Source of the DNA: Escherichia coli
GTDB lineage: Bacteria > Pseudomonadota > Gammaproteobacteria > Enterobacterales > Enterobacteriaceae
DNA: 64,000 nucleotides
Reading direction: 5' to 3' (one strand)
Assembly (NCBI RefSeq): GCF_016026235.1
Contig: NZ_CP065613.1
The translations under genes and the position numbers were made by a program. The notes below the pieces were generated by a model. It had not been told where the DNA came from, did not search any database, and worked only from the letters and a program-made list of their open reading frames with translations. Below, in pieces: positions 30,054 through 44,312 of this stretch. Each line of letters starts with the position of its first letter. Positions within the stretch are counted from its first letter, which is position 1.

Positions 30054-30288
30054 GGCGTATTCCAGATTAAGGTTAAGAATTTTCGTCTGCGCGAATGGTA
30101 CACCGATACCACTATCGGACAAAATTCTGCGTTTTAATTCAGCATTCACCGCCAAAAGCGACTAATTTTAGCTGTTACAGTCAGTTGCTAAATGCAAAGG
30201 AGCATTCATGAAGCAAATGCCTCTTAGGAATTAATCCTTTATAATCAATTAATTACAAGTGGCGTTTCGAAATCATTCGAAATTAATT

Positions 30289-31335
30289 CTAAATGTCTTT
30301 CCATTCCCTCCCTCGTCCGTCACGGTATTTATCCGTCATGCTGGATGAACGATGTCCAAGGAGCGCCTGAGTGAAATCACTGCCTTTTTCTGCTGAGTGC
30401 AGGCGACCGGATAAACTTCGGATTTCATGAAATGGCGGTGGGTCACCTTCCCATTTCAATCCGGATGTGTCTCGGGCAATCCTGAACTGTGCTGCGATTG
30501 TCCTGGCTGTCTTCCCTCCGAGTAACTTTTCGTTTTTACCGTTTATTTTTTTCAAGTTATCCAGTACATCGGCAAGTGTTAAATTCAATCTGGAAATCGT
30601 GGTGGGGAGAGAAATGCGAATTTTTGCCCCTGTTTTTTGTTGTTCCACGTATAGCCTGCCATCTCTTATATCCTCCCATCTCATAGCCGCCAGATCTCCT
30701 TCGCGCTGTCCTGTTACCAGTGCAAGATCCATGCAAAGGCCGAACCATTCGTTCTGGACGTCTGCTATTTTCCTGATTAACAGATACTCGTCAATTAACA
30801 GTCGACTGCGCTTCACTTCAGTTCTGAATGGCTTGGTTGCAGAAGCTGGATCTTCTTCGGCAAGACCAGAAGCTATAGCTGTTTTAAAAATGTCTGATAA
30901 AAGCGCCCTGTACTGGTTAGCAATAGCAAATTTACTCCCAGCTGCTCTGATTTCAAGAAAGCTGTACACCTCCCTTATGCCTATATTTTTAACCGGAACA
31001 CCACCAAAGTATTCACTTATGATTTTCAACCTCTGGTTGTGTCTTTTCATGGTGTTTGTGCTTAATTGTCTACGCTCTATTTCATTTCTGAAATTTAATA
31101 TCAGCTCGCAGAATAATGTTACGCTATTACCTTTTATTCTATCCAGTAAGCTTATATGTTGCGTGGATAATAATTCCATATTTGCCGCAATAGCCTCATT
31201 AACTGCAATTCTTTTGTCTCTTCCGATTCCAAACTCCCTTCCTGAACGTGGGTCACGATAACTATAATATCCACCTCGATTGTAAAGATTGGGTGGTAGA
31301 TCACGTGTGTTTGAGTTTCTTCTTCGTCCGGTCAT
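30289..31335 (-). CDS. int: lambda-type tyrosine integrase
   Basis: MTGRRRNSNTRDLPPNLYNRGGYYSYRDPRSGREFGIGRDKRIAV... closely parallels lambda Int; C-terminal HxxR...Y catalytic region (LLGHRSSSMTDKYRD). Confidence 0.93.
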   Translation of the reverse strand: MTGRRRNSNTRDLPPNLYNRGGYYSYRDPRSGREFGIGRDKRIAVNEAIAANMELLSTQHISLLDRIKGNSVTLFCELILNFRNEIERRQLSTNTMKRHNQRLKIISEYFGGVPVKNIGIREVYSFLEIRAAGSKFAIANQYRALLSDIFKTAIASGLAEEDPASATKPFRTEVKRSRLLIDEYLLIRKIADVQNEWFGLCMDLALVTGQREGDLAAMRWEDIRDGRLYVEQQKTGAKIRISLPTTISRLNLTLADVLDNLKKINGKNEKLLGGKTARTIAAQFRIARDTSGLKWEGDPPPFHEIRSLSGRLHSAEKGSDFTQALLGHRSSSMTDKYRDGRGREWKDI

Positions 31336-31525
31336 TTCTGATTCTCTGCAAAAGCCCGCCAGTCGTTTGAGGTGTAATTTTTTTTGCTGACTCATGAAAT
31401 AAATATTCACGCCCATCCTTTATCGGTGGTGGAAAAATCTTACATTCTCGCACCCAGCGGCGAACCGTTTCTGGGCTTCGTGGACGTAACTGACGGGCGT
31501 TCCATTCTTTGAGTGTCAAATACAT
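31301..31525 (-). CDS. xis: excisionase
   Basis: MYLTLKEWNARQLRPRSPETVRRWVRECKIFPPPIKDGREYLFHESA... near-identical architecture to lambda Xis; overlaps int start. Confidence 0.92.
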   Translation of the reverse strand: MYLTLKEWNARQLRPRSPETVRRWVRECKIFPPPIKDGREYLFHESAKKITPQTTGGLLQRIRNDRTKKKLKHT

Positions 31526-31629: not shown

Positions 31630-31824
31630 TCACGAGGACAGAAGTTTCTCGCAATTAAAATTTATCAGTTTTACTTTCTGCTCTCTGGAAACGCCTGCTT
31701 CTTTTTTCCCTGAGAGCATTTTTTCGCATTCTGATTTCGTTAGTTTAGATTTTGAATATCTTGTCCAGCTGGTAGGAGAACCACCTTCCTTTTCAATAGT
31801 GGCTGTAATTTTATACATGAACAC
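31630..31824 (-). CDS. hypothetical phage protein (64 aa)
   Basis: ORF in the leftward early operon between the ATPase gene and xis. Confidence 0.4.
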   Translation of the reverse strand: MFMYKITATIEKEGGSPTSWTRYSKSKLTKSECEKMLSGKKEAGVSREQKVKLINFNCEKLLSS

Positions 31825-31868: not shown

Positions 31869-32966
31869 TTACACCGGAATATTCTCATCGTATCCTGCTT
31901 GTTGCGTTTCGTTTTGTGTTTGTGGATCCGGGAATGCATATTCAACGCCTTCCAGTTCAATCCATAGTGCATTACGACCAGCTTTGATTGTCGGCCAGTC
32001 CATACCTTTGATTCTTTCCCATGAGCGGGAGGTGAATGTTTTTTCCAGCAAATCAGCTTTTGCGCGTTTGGCGTCGTTACTGGTGCCCCCATGGTGCTTG
32101 TTGAGCAACTCGATAATTTCATCAAGTGCGATTTCTTTTGCACGCTTTTCTTTTAGCCATGTCGGTGTACCGTCGTTGGCAAATAATTCACTGTTATCCC
32201 GTGAGGTATCGATGCCGAGGTGTTCACCTCCCAGGTTAAGAAACTCGATATGAGGAAGAAAGTTTTTAAATGTTGGGTTTGAAAATACCTGTCCATCAAT
32301 ACGGGTGGAGCGATCTTTTAGTATTCTGGCGGTGCGCCACACCTGACCGGTTTCTATGTTCATTTGCTTCTCCATCTGGATCAGGATGGAGGGTTCATAA
32401 CCGGTTTCTGTTTCTGCTTTCATTTTTATACCGGTTTTTGCCAACTGGCGTTTGCCATCATCACCTTCGAAAAAGTCATACTCATATCCTGCACGCCCGC
32501 ACATAATAATGTGCGCCTGACTGTTAACAAATCGATCGGTAAAGCGTCGCCACTCCTGTTTGAGCCACGCCCAGTCTGAAAATTCCAGTCCTCGTTTACG
32601 GTTTCGGCGTCTGGCATACTCGTCGCATAATCCGGTCCAGAAGTGACTGATGGAGTCGATGATCATTACGGAACCGCTGCTTTCCGCTTCATTAATGGCT
32701 TCAAGCAGATCAACAAACGAGCGGGTTTTTGCCGTAAATAATTCGATATTTTCCGCATCAAAGCGGGGTTTAACCCAGTCAGAGCCTGTTTCTGTGTCCA
32801 GAAACATTACCGGGCGGTTACCAGCTTCAATTCCCCGTTGCCGCATAAGCATTACCAGACCAATAGCCAGTTCGCTTGCTGTGTAGGTTTTGCCGTCGCC
32901 AGCAAACCCCATAATTCCTGCTTTTAGATAGGCCTGTGTGTTTATTGCTCGTTGAAAAAGCGCCAT
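31869..32966 (-). CDS. AAA_24-type (Sak4/RecA-like) phage ATPase
   Basis: Walker A GFAGDGKTYTA and Walker B VMIIDSISHFW motifs; 365 aa; sits where recT/bet lies in Rac/lambda. Confidence 0.55.
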   Translation of the reverse strand: MALFQRAINTQAYLKAGIMGFAGDGKTYTASELAIGLVMLMRQRGIEAGNRPVMFLDTETGSDWVKPRFDAENIELFTAKTRSFVDLLEAINEAESSGSVMIIDSISHFWTGLCDEYARRRNRKRGLEFSDWAWLKQEWRRFTDRFVNSQAHIIMCGRAGYEYDFFEGDDGKRQLAKTGIKMKAETETGYEPSILIQMEKQMNIETGQVWRTARILKDRSTRIDGQVFSNPTFKNFLPHIEFLNLGGEHLGIDTSRDNSELFANDGTPTWLKEKRAKEIALDEIIELLNKHHGGTSNDAKRAKADLLEKTFTSRSWERIKGMDWPTIKAGRNALWIELEGVEYAFPDPQTQNETQQAGYDENIPV

Positions 32967-32971
32967 AGATT

Positions 32972-33271
32972 TTAGTCCTCCAAATCAATATCAACCTGGT
33001 GGTGGGCAATGGTTTCAGCCATGTACCGGATGTGTTCTGCCATGCGCTCCTGAAACTCAACATCATCATCAAATGCGTGGCTGATTGCCTGTTTATTGGC
33101 ACCGTGGCGTTGCAAATGGTCGATGCAGAGCGATTCAAACAGGTGCTGAGGCAGACCTTTTTCCAGGTCGTCCGCCAGTTCCGTTTCTTTTTCTTCACGA
33201 ACGATCTGCTGGTAGTGGCGAGCCCATGCCATTTCTTCAATACGATCAAAAATCGGGTAAGCGCTCATCAC
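32972..33271 (-). CDS. hypothetical acidic phage protein (99 aa)
   Basis: ORF between the RecE-like gene and the ATPase gene, same strand, tightly packed. Confidence 0.4.
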
Positions 33272-35204
33272 TGGTCACTCCAAAATTTTCAAGCTTGTTG
33301 GCAATCATCATTGCGATGTCAGGGATTGCAGGCGCATAGGCTATGCACGCAGGATTCGCACATAAACCGTAAACCGCCGCAATCAACACCTGTTTTTTCC
33401 AGTTGAGTTCATCTTCGCCAGTTTCATTATTGCTATCATTATGCTGATCGCTGCCAGCGTTCTCCGGTAACAAATCATCAGCTTTTTCCGTTTTCTTCGG
33501 CTCTTCTTCCTGTGCTTCATCTGGTTTTTTTTCGTCAAAAGTTTCCTGATAAGTTGCGTCTCCCATCACCGCGCCACAGTCAGGGCAGTTATCCTCGCCA
33601 GTCTGATTGCAGGGTGTTCCCTCCTCCGGTTCGCTGTTCTGGTGCTGTTTATCTTCAGTCTGTCGCACTTCATTTTCCGTTTTTTTGACTTCATTTGAGG
33701 AGATATGATGACCGGGAATCCATTTCGGATCATTCGGGTCGCTAATCCCTTCAACAAATTCTCCGCGAGAGGCAGCCAGTAATTTGTCTGCATCGACAGG
33801 ATTTTTGGGCGGAATGTTTTTCCGGGCTTCATGGAGTTCTGCCCGCAGTTCCTGATATTTCGCATCAACAGCATTTACCTGTGACTGAGCATCCAGCGGC
33901 TGCGTGTCCTGATGATGTTCAGTTGCATCCGGTTCCACTGTTTCAGCCGTTGCCTGTTCATCTGCCATTGCGCAAGATGGTTGCGGTTTTTCTTCATCAT
34001 CCTGTTTTCCTTCTTCTGTTACTCGCTGCGGCATCGGGGCAGAGGAGCGACCGCAGGCAATATCCACGATTTCCGGATCAGGGTTGGCATGATCGGTTTC
34101 AGTCAGTACTTTGTTCAGATATTCAGTGACGTGTGCGGGGATGACCTCGATCCCAATTGGTGCTTCTTTCACGGACGCAACCACGATGGCGCGGGAATAA
34201 TCCAGCCCGCCAGGCATGGTGATGAATTTGTCGCGGAAAACAGAAAAGGGTGGTTTATTTTCAGCGATAATTTCCTCAATGCGTTTAGCGTGTGCCGGAT
34301 GAAGGTTATAGATGTCCACGTCCATTGAACGGGCCAGTACGCCAGTGGCTACATCGCGCGTCAGTGACGTCAGATCGTGGACGAAACCTTCGCCGCGATC
34401 GGTGAGGTTCCCGCCGCCAGCATTAGCACCGGAAGTCGTGCGAGTGATGCGTGAAACACGATTCCCTTTTCGCCATTCTTTTGTCAGAAGACCGCGATCA
34501 ATGTGTTCGGTATCCAGCCAGGCTGAAATGAAATTCTTAAATTCATAGGGCTGATGTTTTTTCGTGATAGAGAAAACTGCCTTAATTGCATCAGTCAGGC
34601 GGAGCAGGGCGGCATTATCCAGAGTTGTCGGTTCTGCCATGCCGCGTATGGCCAACAGCAGATTCTGGACATAGCTGTTTTCCTGATCCATCTCAAGAGC
34701 AGTAATGTGTTTGCGTTGTTCACGGGTGGCATGATGCAGGTATTTCCGATCCCCGGCAGCATACGTAAAAATGTGCAGAAGACGCTGTGTGAACCGCAAA
34801 GTGGCTACAGAGACTTCGCAATCCTGGCAATCCTCGTGGGCGTCTGCCTGCGCGTTTTCTTCCTGGCCTCCCGCCAGTTCTTTGGTTTCTTGAGCATTAT
34901 CCTGGTGGTGAACGTCGTCTGGCGCTGCTCCCGGTTTTAGTTCCCATGTCATGGAGTCTTTGCTGAGTTGATAGCGTTCACTCCAGGTAAAATCGATCTC
35001 ACCTTCAGGGGGAAGGTCATTAACGACAGGAAAATTTGTGGCAACAGCTTTAAAATAGTTGCTCAGTTTTTTACCTGACTTAACGAGCAGATAGTCCAGA
35101 GTGGTGCTGGTCGATTCAAAATCGTCGCTTGCCCACAGGACGACGTCAGGTTCACCGGATGATTTTTTCGCTTTCCGTAACAGGAAGAGTGGTTTTGTGC
35201 TCAT
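33246..35204 (-). CDS. RecE (exonuclease VIII) N-terminal-region homolog; C-terminal nuclease domain apparently absent
   Basis: N-terminus [31 protein letters not shown]... and internal block [35 protein letters not shown]...[64 protein letters not shown] match my recollection of Rac RecE; 652 aa vs about 866 aa for RecE. Confidence 0.55.
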
Positions 35205-35332: not shown

Positions 35333-35578
35333 TCAGAGTTGCCAGAAATTCGGCTTTTTTTCTGCGGGCAGATTATTTCCGATGTAAACCAGGCACATTT
35401 TTGTGGCACCTTCAACAAGAGTTTTAAAGTTTCCTGATAGACCGTCGATATCAACCACAGTGAATGGGGTTTCTTTATTTTCTGTTTTAATTACGTAGCC
35501 AATATGCTTTCCTTCCAGGTAAACCTCGTGAACAATGTTATCAGTAGTTGCAACAGTGGCTTCATAATTGGTGTTCAT
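35333..35578 (-). CDS. hypothetical phage protein (81 aa)
   Basis: ORF with GGAG RBS before MNTNYEATVATT... Confidence 0.4.
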   Translation of the reverse strand: MNTNYEATVATTDNIVHEVYLEGKHIGYVIKTENKETPFTVVDIDGLSGNFKTLVEGATKMCLVYIGNNLPAEKKPNFWQL

Positions 35579-35652
35579 GTTTTTCTCCTTAATTAAGGTT
35601 GAGCGAATCCCTGCCATTGCTGGCATAAATTCAGTTTCGAATAGTCAGTTAA

Positions 35653-35934
35653 TTAAAGTTCGTGTGCCATCTGGTCTTTTTCGGCGCAGATTTCACTACA
35701 ATATTTGCGTTTCTTTTTCCTCATCATGGTTCCGTGCATGTAAATAAGTTCAGCAGTGTAAGCCTTATCAGGGCTTACTTGTCTGTCACACAGGCCATAA
35801 GCACAGGGAATTAAATCGGGATCACCTTTCTGCTGGAGGGTTTTTTTGATTATCCATAACAATTTTTTGATTCCGGTGTGTGTTATGGTCTGCTGAGGTG
35901 CAGAGGTAAAACAATAATCAAGCATAGGGTTCAT
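35653..35934 (-). CDS. hypothetical zinc-ribbon protein (93 aa)
   Basis: two Cys pairs (CAYGLC ... CSEIC). Confidence 0.4.
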   Translation of the reverse strand: MNPMLDYCFTSAPQQTITHTGIKKLLWIIKKTLQQKGDPDLIPCAYGLCDRQVSPDKAYTAELIYMHGTMMRKKKRKYCSEICAEKDQMAHEL

Positions 35935-35950
35935 ATCCGTAGCTCCATTT

Positions 35951-36505
35951 TTATTTTAAAGAAAGTAATTGTTCCACAGTCATATTTTTAATTGCGCCCC
36001 GGTTAACAAGAGTCCATCCCTGTTTTTCCAGATAAAACCGGAAAGTCTCCAGGGTACAGACCAGTGCGCCATCAGGAACGGTTTCGGTGAATTCGACATT
36101 GCCGAATTTGTCGAAGTGAACAACCAGAGTGCGACCATCACCCGGAATCATCTTGTCAGCAGGTGGGGTGTTATTCTGGCGCAGTTCGGCCTCCATGCGG
36201 TCGAACTCAGCAATGTAGGCTTCCTTGAATGCGGCGGCTTTTTTGCCAGTGAAGCCCATCATCAGGAAAACGAAGCCGTTTTTGGTGATTTGGTACATTG
36301 GGCGTTTTTCGCCTTTGGCGTCGGTATAGGTGACGGGCTTAAAATTAAGCCGGTTAAACTCCGGCGAGCATTCGAGAGTTTCGATCTTCTGAATAACGTT
36401 TTTGTGCATTTTCCGGAAGAACTTCGCAACCGCAACAGACGTAGTGACAGCGCGACCATTTTCGATGGTTACGTCAGGGTGAGAAAGGGTAAGGATAGTA
36501 GCCAT
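35951..36505 (-). CDS. Rha-family phage regulatory protein
   Basis: MATILTLSHPDVTIENGRAVTTSVAVAKFFRKMHKNVIQKIETL... matches Rha domain pattern; GAGG RBS before this Met; ORF is open further upstream to 36799. Confidence 0.5.
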   Translation of the reverse strand: MATILTLSHPDVTIENGRAVTTSVAVAKFFRKMHKNVIQKIETLECSPEFNRLNFKPVTYTDAKGEKRPMYQITKNGFVFLMMGFTGKKAAAFKEAYIAEFDRMEAELRQNNTPPADKMIPGDGRTLVVHFDKFGNVEFTETVPDGALVCTLETFRFYLEKQGWTLVNRGAIKNMTVEQLLSLK

Positions 36506-36821
36506 GATGGCAGCCTCGATAGTCAGTTTAAATAACTCACCACCAGAGGTAGCAATCTCATGGGTGGTGAGACGCACAGGGTTGCTACAACCGGTGACTA
36601 CCGAAACCGGCCAGCCTTGCGGCTGCCCTGCACGCCCCACCATAATCTGAATGTGGCTGTGCTTGACGCATAAAAAAACCGCCTGAGCGCGGTTATGCGC
36701 AGTAGTCATCGTCGGGGTAGCAATCCCGGCCCCCGTTTTATGAGGTGCAGGTGCACTATAATTCCACCCGTTCTGGTTTTCAATAGCTACATTCAACATT
36801 TTCTCTCACCTTTCATCACCG

Positions 36822-43096: not shown

Positions 43097-43384
43097 ATGA
43101 AAATCGAAGAATTGCGTGAAATTTTTAGTGAAAATGGCCTCTATGCTGTGCGCGTTGAGAATGGAGCGATTGTCAGCCATTGCCGCATTAGATGTTTGCA
43201 ATCTCAACAAAGGAAGAGCGGTGCTGTGTTATTTTATTTTTGTAATGGACTTCTGACGGACGGTTTTATTTTGCGTGAGGACGAATTTGTCACATCATTA
43301 CGGGTTTTGAAAGAGATTGGTTTTAAGGCTGGTTTTCTGCTTTTGCTGAAGAATAAACTCATCTACAATCTTGAGCAGGATTGA
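43097..43384 (+). CDS. hypothetical phage protein (95 aa)
   Basis: ORF with RBS, nin-like region. Confidence 0.35.
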   Translation: MKIEELREIFSENGLYAVRVENGAIVSHCRIRCLQSQQRKSGAVLFYFCNGLLTDGFILREDEFVTSLRVLKEIGFKAGFLLLLKNKLIYNLEQD

Positions 43385-43422
43385 ACTCCTGCTGTGTAAC
43401 ACCGTGCCACCGGAGAAAGCCG

Positions 43423-44022
43423 ATGGCACATATACAACTGGTCAAACAAACCTCTTCCGGATTACTTCTCCCGGCGACGCCGGAGAGTTGCGATTTTCTG
43501 CATCAAATCAAAATAGGTGAGTGGATACACGCAGACTTTAAGCGTGTGCGTAACTACGCATTCCACAAGCGTTTTTTCAAACTCCTGCAACTGGGTTTCG
43601 ATTACTGGACTCCGGTCGGTGGGGCGATCACGCCTCGCGAACGAAAACTGGTGTCCGGTTTCGTTGATTACCTGTGTGAATCAGTAGGCCGGGAACATAC
43701 GCCAGCTCTGAGCGAAGCCGCAGAGCAATATCTGAATACAGTTGCGACACGCAGAACCCGTGATACGGCATTGCTAAAGTCGTTTGAGGCTTTCCGCGAG
43801 TGGGTAGCCATTCAGGCCGGATTTTACACCGAGCATTTTTATCCGGACGGTAGCCGTGGGTGTCGGGCGAAATCTATCGCGTTTGCGAATATGGACGAAA
43901 CCGAGTTTCAGCAGGTTTATAAATCTGTACTGAATGTGCTGTGGAACTGGATTCTGTTCCGTAAATTTTCCTCTCCGGAACAAGTCGAAAATGTGGCCGC
44001 GCAGCTGCTGGAGTTTGCGTAA
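43423..44022 (+). CDS. hypothetical nin-region protein (199 aa)
   Basis: GGAGAAAG RBS before MAHIQLVKQT. Confidence 0.45.
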   Translation: MAHIQLVKQTSSGLLLPATPESCDFLHQIKIGEWIHADFKRVRNYAFHKRFFKLLQLGFDYWTPVGGAITPRERKLVSGFVDYLCESVGREHTPALSEAAEQYLNTVATRRTRDTALLKSFEAFREWVAIQAGFYTEHFYPDGSRGCRAKSIAFANMDETEFQQVYKSVLNVLWNWILFRKFSSPEQVENVAAQLLEFA

Positions 44023-44312
44023 TGGTGGATTTACTTAAAGCGGCGCGGGGGCAGATGTGCACCGTCAGAATTCCTGGCTACTGCAATCACGATCCGGAAA
44101 CGTCTGTGCTGGCGCATTACCGACTGGCGGGAACGTGCGGAACAGCGATAAAGCCACACGATATGCAGGCAGCGATTGCCTGTAGCTCGTGCCACGATTT
44201 AATCGACGGGCGGGTAAAAACCAGCGATTACACCAAAGAAGAATTACGCCTGATGCATGCAGAAGGTGTTTTTCGCACACAAGAAATCTGGAGAAAGGAG
44301 GGATATTTATGA
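44022..44312 (+). CDS. YbcO-like (DUF1364) putative nuclease
   Basis: MVDLLKAARGQMCTVRIPGYCNHDPETSVLAHYRLAGTCGTAIKPHDMQAAIACSSCHDLIDGR resembles DLP12 YbcO. Confidence 0.6.
   Translation: MVDLLKAARGQMCTVRIPGYCNHDPETSVLAHYRLAGTCGTAIKPHDMQAAIACSSCHDLIDGRVKTSDYTKEELRLMHAEGVFRTQEIWRKEGYL

Follow-up and report, generated by a model that had tools for sequence, protein, structure and literature searches.

The element described here is a three-gene module, probably serving recombination, on the minus strand of a lambdoid prophage of Escherichia coli, at positions 31869-35204 of a 64,000-nucleotide (nt) stretch of contig NZ_CP065613.1; this whole stretch is called the window below. Three minus-strand open reading frames (ORFs) of 652, 99 and 365 amino acids (aa), reported there in an earlier reading made from the DNA letters alone (the sequence-only reading), are all present at these positions. 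They encode, in the direction of transcription, a RecE N-terminal protein with a short tail in place of the nuclease (RecE-N::tail), a Gam homologue, and an ATPase with a RecA/Rad51-type core. The genes and the parts of their products are the following; model confidence is given as the predicted local distance difference test score (pLDDT) and selection as the ratio of nonsynonymous to synonymous substitution rates (dN/dS).

33246..35204, minus strand: RecE-N::tail, 652 aa, nuclease-less RecE N-terminal protein (ORF, Pfam, NCBIfam, BLASTP)
34005..34499, minus strand: RecE-N core, residues 236-400, the most conserved part (allele alignment; dN/dS 0.08-0.11)
33411..34004, minus strand: acidic fast-evolving linker, residues 401-598 (predicted disordered, pLDDT <50)
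33249..33410, minus strand: hydrophobic C-terminal tail of ~52 aa (junction after ...DETGE; conserved in Shiga toxin (Stx) phage 75/02)
32972..33271, minus strand: gam, short-form (GamS) homologue, 98-99 aa (phrog_259, PDB 2UUZ/5MBV, RefSeq name)
31869..32966, minus strand: 365-aa AAA_24 ATPase (ORF, Pfam AAA_24)
32277..32966, minus strand: ATPase residues 1-230, RecA/Rad51-type core (Walker A GFAGDGKT, Walker B MIIDS)
31932..32276, minus strand: ATPase residues 231-345, conserved, mostly helical C-terminal domain (model and homologues)
31872..31931, minus strand: ATPase residues 346-365, acidic flexible tail ending YDENIPV (pLDDT 55-60; net charge -5)

The relationship of the 652-aa protein to RecE is supported by several comparisons, with matches well outside what chance would give. 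Its sole Pfam match is Exonuc_VIII (PF06630; residues 2-182, E 2.9e-66); the NCBIfam RecE equivalog PRK09709 aligns residues 1-597 with positions 1-596 of an 877-position model at 872 bits, short of the cut-off of 1269 bits; and pairwise BLASTP against the 891-aa RecE gives 85% identity between residues 1-597 and RecE 1-610. The C-terminal PD-(D/E)xK exonuclease domain (RecE ~564/606-866) is absent by Pfam, where PF12684 is the nuclease-domain family in full-length RecE relatives, and likewise by NCBIfam coverage and BLASTP. The sequence-only reading had described the protein in these terms, as a RecE N-terminal relative without the nuclease domain that ends in an acidic linker and about 50 residues, and each part of this description holds: residues 501-598 of the linker have a net charge of -20, and the tail of ~52 aa follows. 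In the DNA alignment the RecE homology breaks directly after ...DETGE. At this point full RecE enters the nuclease fragment, which opens with VADTVIVEDIEPGIYYG, and the window protein reads on into the tail, running into gam, with the RecE-N::tail stop codon 23-26 nt inside the overlapping gam frame. Judging from this alignment, the nuclease domain is replaced by a conserved hydrophobic motif of ~45 residues lying within the ~52-residue C-terminal tail.

The structure model of the 652-aa protein is poor overall, with a helical core at pLDDT ~70-87. Core residues 236-400 are nearly invariant between alleles; the linker evolves fast (dN/dS 0.43 or saturated), and the protein as a whole has an isoelectric point (pI) of 4.8. 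The linker of the window allele contains a degenerate zinc-ribbon-like motif, C532...C540-x2-C543 (window 33575-33611, residues 532-543). Other alleles have a CxxC-x8-CxxC zinc-ribbon-like motif, e.g. CTACGQSGGDNCPDCG, and the window and L001 alleles have C-x7-CxxC only, within a stretch where compensating indels set the alleles apart.

The tail is predicted to form two helices and reaches a Kyte-Doolittle maximum of 1.72 over 19 residues; it may associate with the membrane or form a partner-binding hairpin. Pfam gave no match for it, the PHROG matches were only to RecE-containing families (E 0.005-0.04), a protein search returned short annotated fragments only, and tblastn against phage genomes found nothing, probably owing to low-complexity masking. 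Upstream of gamS, lambda DNA shows no relationship to the tail, the lambda homology beginning at the GamS start codon; the position of the tail is taken in lambda by kil and the extra N-terminus of the long Gam form (GamL).

The 99-aa ORF, noted by the sequence-only reading just as an acidic protein, matches phrog_259 (E 5.5e-54) and, over residues 2-98, the PDB entries 2UUZ (E 1.6e-50) and 5MBV (E 2.5e-50), the latter being the RecBCD-Gam complex; the ORF was correctly called, and its identity with lambda Gam was overlooked. By these matches it is homologous to lambda Gam in its short form (GamS), which inhibits RecBCD, and the same inhibition would be expected of the window protein too. The homology to lambda extends from the GamS start through the stop codon, and the likely start codon is the ATG at 33268, giving 98 aa, in agreement with the RefSeq annotation of the identical gene. 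The same reading's label for the locus, a hybrid recombination or anti-host-nuclease module, turns out to be apt because the middle gene is Gam.

The 365-aa protein ends the module, 5 nt beyond gam. Both Walker motifs that had been pointed out in it are found (motif strings GFAGDGKT and VMIIDSIS), Pfam AAA_24 covers residues 14-187 (E 1e-13), and NCBIfam has no family for it. Its nearest structural neighbours are RAD51 paralogues, RecA, DMC1 and Sak4, with 19% identity to the Sak4 of a staphylococcal phage in the structural alignment; thus it is an AAA_24 protein with a fold of the RecA/Rad51/Sak4 type and not a replicative helicase. The suggested kinship with Sak4 was borne out for the fold and the Pfam family and not for the small core-only size, and BLASTP gave no significant similarity to the Sak4 of phage HK620. 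By its definition, Sak4 is a mini-RecA of ~245 residues, without room for a second domain (PMC2896510). Against a core-only size of ~220-245 aa, the window ATPase has 365 aa and an additional domain, and no SSB gene lies beside it as one does beside Sak4. It is Sak4-like in fold and Pfam family but departs in these features from Sak4 proper; from sequence comparison, it appears to belong to a branch of the AAA_24/Sak4 group whose members are long.

This branch is large. With clusters made at 50% identity, 4432 cluster representatives are found at E <=0.001 and 500 at <=1e-30; the members are usually 350-380 aa long, and the similarity extends to residue ~340. The ATPase is identical (100%) to a Shigella boydii protein and shares 60-75% identity with prophage proteins of Pseudomonas and Burkholderiales. 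In comparison with the homologue from phage phiES15, the proportion of nonsynonymous differences (pN) is 0.10 and that of synonymous differences (pS) is saturated. The C-terminal domain is confidently modelled (helices 233-242, 269-291, 297-311, 316-320 and 324-339) and has the conserved motifs SW..I and EIxLDEI; Pfam found no family for it in 45 members. A fusion of Sak4 with the single-stranded DNA-binding protein SSB was considered for this architecture and is rejected at the sequence level, the domain having no similarity to the SSB of HK620.

The last seven codons of the ATPase (window 31872-31892) encode YDENIPV, and the phiES15 homologue ends FDEDIPQ. All 40 of the 40 intact Gam-linked homologues (among L005 and L013-L092), which are closely related sequences, end [YFE][DE]E[DNVA][IM]P[QV]. 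The tip of SSB recruits SSB partner proteins. In E. coli this tip is DDDIPF (PMC5928155), a phage SSB adjoining a distant relative of the ATPase ends MDDDIPF, and the Sak4 of HK620 needs the six C-terminal residues of its SSB for loading on SSB-coated DNA (PMC5928155). The final residue of the ATPase tip is not the aromatic one that SSB partners use. An SSB-like tip on the recombinase of phages that have no SSB gene is suggestive, and we treat it as a lead rather than a result. Among the C-terminal ends of 257 family members, -AA occurs 52 times (~2 expected from composition) and -PF ten times, and the tips seem to fall into few selected classes. Ends in -AA are reminiscent of ssrA-type tags for degradation by ClpXP.

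The ATPase gene keeps similar company elsewhere. A Gam homologue ends 0-6 nt ahead of it in 42 of 80 viral contigs, having diverged to 38-47% identity with the window Gam, and a canonical SSB gene lies directly downstream in 7 of the 80, all of them with distant relatives of the ATPase; Bet, Exo, RecT or the RecE nuclease were found within 5 kb of the ATPase in none of the 80. In four further contigs a possibly Gam-like ORF of 108 aa stands ahead of the ATPase. This ORF (…NAYLTYDHIEDRRWVEQQLTDEKEKW…; L020-L022 and L082) occupies Gam's place, its N-terminal part is loosely Gam-like, and it may encode a very divergent Gam-like inhibitor. Sister prophages have the same RecE-N-tail and Gam genes followed by Bet-Exo. 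The ATPase had been placed by the sequence-only reading in the slot of recT; the slot is better named that of bet-exo, downstream of gam.

The identities of the genes, the limits of their domains and the folds, together with the mosaic junctions, the purifying selection and the return of these parts in functional phages, lead us to read the locus as an early-left (pL-type) recombination module, a mosaic of three known kinds of parts: Gam, an ATPase annealase or recombinase, and a RecE-N accessory protein. We regard this reading as fairly probable. Several observations weigh against it. The ATPase matches best PHROG 1366, a family of 'unknown function' (E 1e-79), and matches the Sak4-like PHROG 124 weakly (E 1e-8); BLASTP between the ATPase and the HK620 Sak4 (HkaL, 226 aa) is not significant (E 0.11). 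No SSB, Exo, Bet or RecT was found among the prophage ORFs tested, and Sak4 needs its cognate SSB for good activity. Identical RecE-N genes are marked in RefSeq by the annotation pipeline PGAP as pseudogenes, 'incomplete; missing C-terminus', and one Cys pair of the zinc-ribbon-like motif is gone from the window allele. The ATPase gene is rare, being present in 9 of 5426 complete E. coli genomes, and the module occurs in genomes of the Shigella and enteroinvasive E. coli (EIEC) type, where prophage decay is common. These nine genomes hold the gene in 21 places, up to four per genome, all at least 99.9% identical and some interrupted by IS1, which suggests recent copying or spread among the resident prophages of EIEC/Shigella-type strains.

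The pseudogene label and the lost Cys pair, together with the NCBIfam score under the RecE cut-off and the lack of a family match for the tail, are also what one might expect if the 652-aa ORF were a dead remnant of a Rac-type by lambda-type recombination that cut recE, its frame open by chance and only gam and the ATPase of any consequence. We hold this to be distinctly unlikely, given how the tail form behaves elsewhere. The tail-bearing ORF is intact in at least three diverged alleles, those of 652, 646 and 671 aa having strongly different N-terminal thirds, and the inducible Stx phages 75/02 and POCJ13 carry a 682-aa version upstream of Gam-Bet-Exo; in 75/02 the tail is kept almost unchanged despite an overall protein identity of 54%, and it thus remains in frame between alleles that are 46% different. 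Its dN/dS of 0.12-0.14 (Nei-Gojobori) is as low as that of the core, while the linker drifts. The PGAP feature ends ~150 nt short of the true stop codon of the intact RecE-N::tail ORFs in the RefSeq E. coli genomes L001, L002 and L003, and because of the selection data the pseudogene label is probably a mis-annotation.

The tail is one of several C-termini found on the same RecE N-region, the others being the RecE nuclease (883-1055 aa) and a DnaQ-like 3'-5' exonuclease (788 aa; L111 4001-6367, PF16473 E 1.5e-66). Among the viral contigs classified, there are ~64 nuclease fusions, one DnaQ-like fusion and ~9 tail forms, just one of the latter being frameshifted (L159) and one lacking the N-terminal ~200 residues (L160). 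Downstream of every tail-form locus lies gam, in the arrangements Gam-Bet-Exo (6), Gam-ATPase (2) and Gam alone (1); the RecT column of this tally is unreliable, since the RecT reference failed, at most full-length RecE loci, to pick up the gene that follows. By these sequence comparisons, the nuclease-less RecE appears to be a recurrent, selected architecture and not a one-off truncation or debris.

This constant order, with the tail form invariably preceding Gam in an overlapping reading frame, could instead point to a module that serves mainly to evade host nucleases or defence, RecE-N::tail and Gam neutralising host nucleases or other immunity and recombination being secondary. The strong acidity of the 652-aa protein (its pI and the charge of its linker) and the hydrophobic tail (Kyte-Doolittle 1.72), which might bind membranes, could be accommodated in the same way. 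However, the linkage of tail and Gam may merely reflect one ancestral junction, the same N-region is usually fused to exonucleases used for recombination, no structural evidence of DNA mimicry was obtained, and PADLOC, run on six genes, returned zero matches, with no match to an anti-defence family either. This explanation seems to us very unlikely.

The third alternative concerns the ATPase, which might be a phage P-loop protein of another kind and not a recombinase: an accessory or helicase-loader-like NTPase of replication, for example, or an ATPase of counter-defence, DarB-like or otherwise. AAA_24 phage proteins are annotated variously as helicase, DarB-like antirestriction protein, ATP-binding protein and recombinase, and the protein's own PHROG, as mentioned above, is of 'unknown function'. 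Its best structural neighbours, on the other hand, are all of the RecA/RAD51/Sak4 kind; its gene lies between immunity and int, right after Gam or right before SSB, and never in a replication module; the prophage has separate O-like and DnaC-like replication genes; and PADLOC did not match it. We therefore consider a role outside recombination unlikely, if less so than the two preceding explanations. All three are less well supported than a mosaic recombination module.

The setting of the module is that of an early-left operon. Positions 1-30155 of the window are E. coli/Shigella chromosome (modC, ybhA), and the lambdoid prophage extends from 30289 on, with the insertion point ybhA/pgl at window 30156-30290. 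The leftward minus-strand order is Rha-family regulator, YdaE-family protein, 97-aa protein, 652-aa protein, 99-aa protein, 365-aa protein, DUF1187, excisionase and integrase. The features outside the module are the following.

35951-36799, minus strand: Rha-family regulator (PHROG match and RefSeq name)
35333..36799, minus strand: upstream genes of the same leftward operon, namely a phrog_4778 protein, a YdaE-family protein and the Rha-family regulator (PHROG and RefSeq names)
31630..31824, minus strand: DUF1187 small protein, the next operon gene (phrog_5753, RefSeq name)
31301-31525, minus strand: excisionase, prophage left end
30289-31416, minus strand: tyrosine integrase, prophage left end
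43381..44022, plus strand: NinB/Orf recombination mediator of the nin region, the only other recognisable recombination gene in the prophage
44022-44312: HNH endonuclease, phrog_131, between NinB/Orf and the Q antiterminator

The prophage also has a repressor, Cro- and CII-like genes, O-like and DnaC-like replication genes, Q, lysis and terminase genes, and is apparently complete, lambdoid and Rac-like. The HNH endonuclease is the sole nuclease-type gene noticed in its early regions. A promoter and terminator scan of the operon gave nothing useful, with no strong or convincing internal terminator. As to the site of integration, ybhA and pgl adjoin each other in most E. coli, and this integrase at this site is shared with just one complete E. 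coli genome, FDAARGOS_943.

In the window, Gam and a RecA-fold ATPase are contiguous in the early-left region, between the immunity region and xis-int. By its gene content, the locus seems to fit the lambdoid Rec-module type that combines an anti-RecBCD function with an annealing protein and has neither nuclease nor SSB, which corresponds to the P22-type class in a 2025 survey of lambdoid Rec modules (PMC12315714). The closest parallel is the Cronobacter phage phiES15, which has the order Kil-Gam-ATPase-...-xis-int, a 366-aa ATPase 85% identical to that of the window, and, like the window, no Bet, Exo or SSB; the survey counts it as carrying a Rec module (PMC12315714). Because phiES15 was UV-induced, the Gam-ATPase pair works in a live phage. 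It differs from the window in having no RecE-N gene, Kil ahead of Gam, and a Gam ~39% identical to the lambda-type Gam of the window.

Each of the better known systems shares a part of the module. Lambda Red (gam-bet-exo) has the same Gam as the window, but Bet, a Rad52-type annealase, and Exo, a 5'-3' exonuclease, where the window has one RecA-fold ATPase; ahead of Gam-Bet-Exo, the Stx phages 75/02 and POCJ13 and the E. coli prophage L002 have the RecE-N::tail gene of the window. With Rac RecE/RecT the window shares RecE 1-610 (85%), the upstream genes and the downstream DUF1187-xis-int; the PD-(D/E)xK nuclease and RecT of Rac are both lacking in the window module, and the break at ...DETGE coincides with the start of the crystallised nuclease fragment. 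The HK620 Sak4 (HkaL) has in common with the window ATPase the RecA-core fold, the Walker A/B motifs, the AAA_24-type family and a place in an early-left Rec module beside an anti-RecBCD gene. HK620, however, has an SSB (HkaK) and Abc2, and its Sak4 (226 against 365 aa) is without the conserved C-terminal domain; it binds the tip of its SSB, whereas the window ATPase itself has an SSB-like tip and no SSB was found in the prophage. The distant relatives of the window ATPase that have SSB next door resemble HK620 in this respect. Finally, the survey describes nuclease-less early-left relatives of RecE, 'RecE-2', as having no known role and as distant from Rac RecE (PMC12315714). These are like the window protein in lacking the nuclease, whereas the window protein is 85% identical to RecE up to the junction.

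On the reading of the locus as a mosaic recombination module, a sequence of events can be proposed, all biochemical activities in it being ones that we infer. After induction, Gam would occupy the site where DNA enters host RecBCD, so that linear phage DNA would be protected, as the structures of Gam and of the RecBCD-Gam complex suggest. The ATPase, with ATP, would bind single-stranded DNA and anneal or pair complementary strands, and this pairing would serve circularisation, recombination-dependent replication and exchange with other prophages. Sak4 itself is an ATP-dependent annealase that relies on the SSB tail (PMC5928155). Since neither an exonuclease nor an SSB is encoded in the module, its substrate would be supplied by the host, as single-stranded DNA produced by host nucleases and coated by host SSB; NinB/Orf may help on SSB-coated DNA. 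RecE-N::tail would act as an accessory or adaptor for Bet-Exo, for the ATPase or for a nuclease in cis, most likely retaining the accessory role that the N-terminal region has in full RecE. The function of the RecE N-terminal domain is not known, yet linear-linear recombination is better with it (PMC11611040).

A more specific version can be put forward as a tentative idea, one that we consider doubtful though not to be dismissed. The ATPase would be self-sufficient without a phage SSB or exonuclease. Its C-terminal domain would provide secondary DNA binding, and its tip ([FY]-D-E-x-I-P-x, compared with F-D-D-D-I-P-F of host SSB) would mimic the SSB tail, either to join the SSB interactome of the host (RecJ, ExoI, RecQ, PriA) or to regulate the protein's own DNA binding. 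With Gam, it would then form a minimal two-protein 'Red', and RecE-N would be an autonomous adaptor for nuclease, DnaQ-like or tail modules.

Overall, the module is genuine, if uncommon, and reshuffles phage recombination parts that are already known. The RecE N-region has been without an assigned function for decades, although direct cloning makes wide use of full-length RecE. If the reading given here is true, a large long branch of Sak4/RecA-like phage proteins that pairs with Gam or SSB would be defined, and a compact two-gene recombineering tool might result. Likewise, a free-standing, selected RecE-N upstream of three recombination set-ups would make the function of this region testable without the nuclease.

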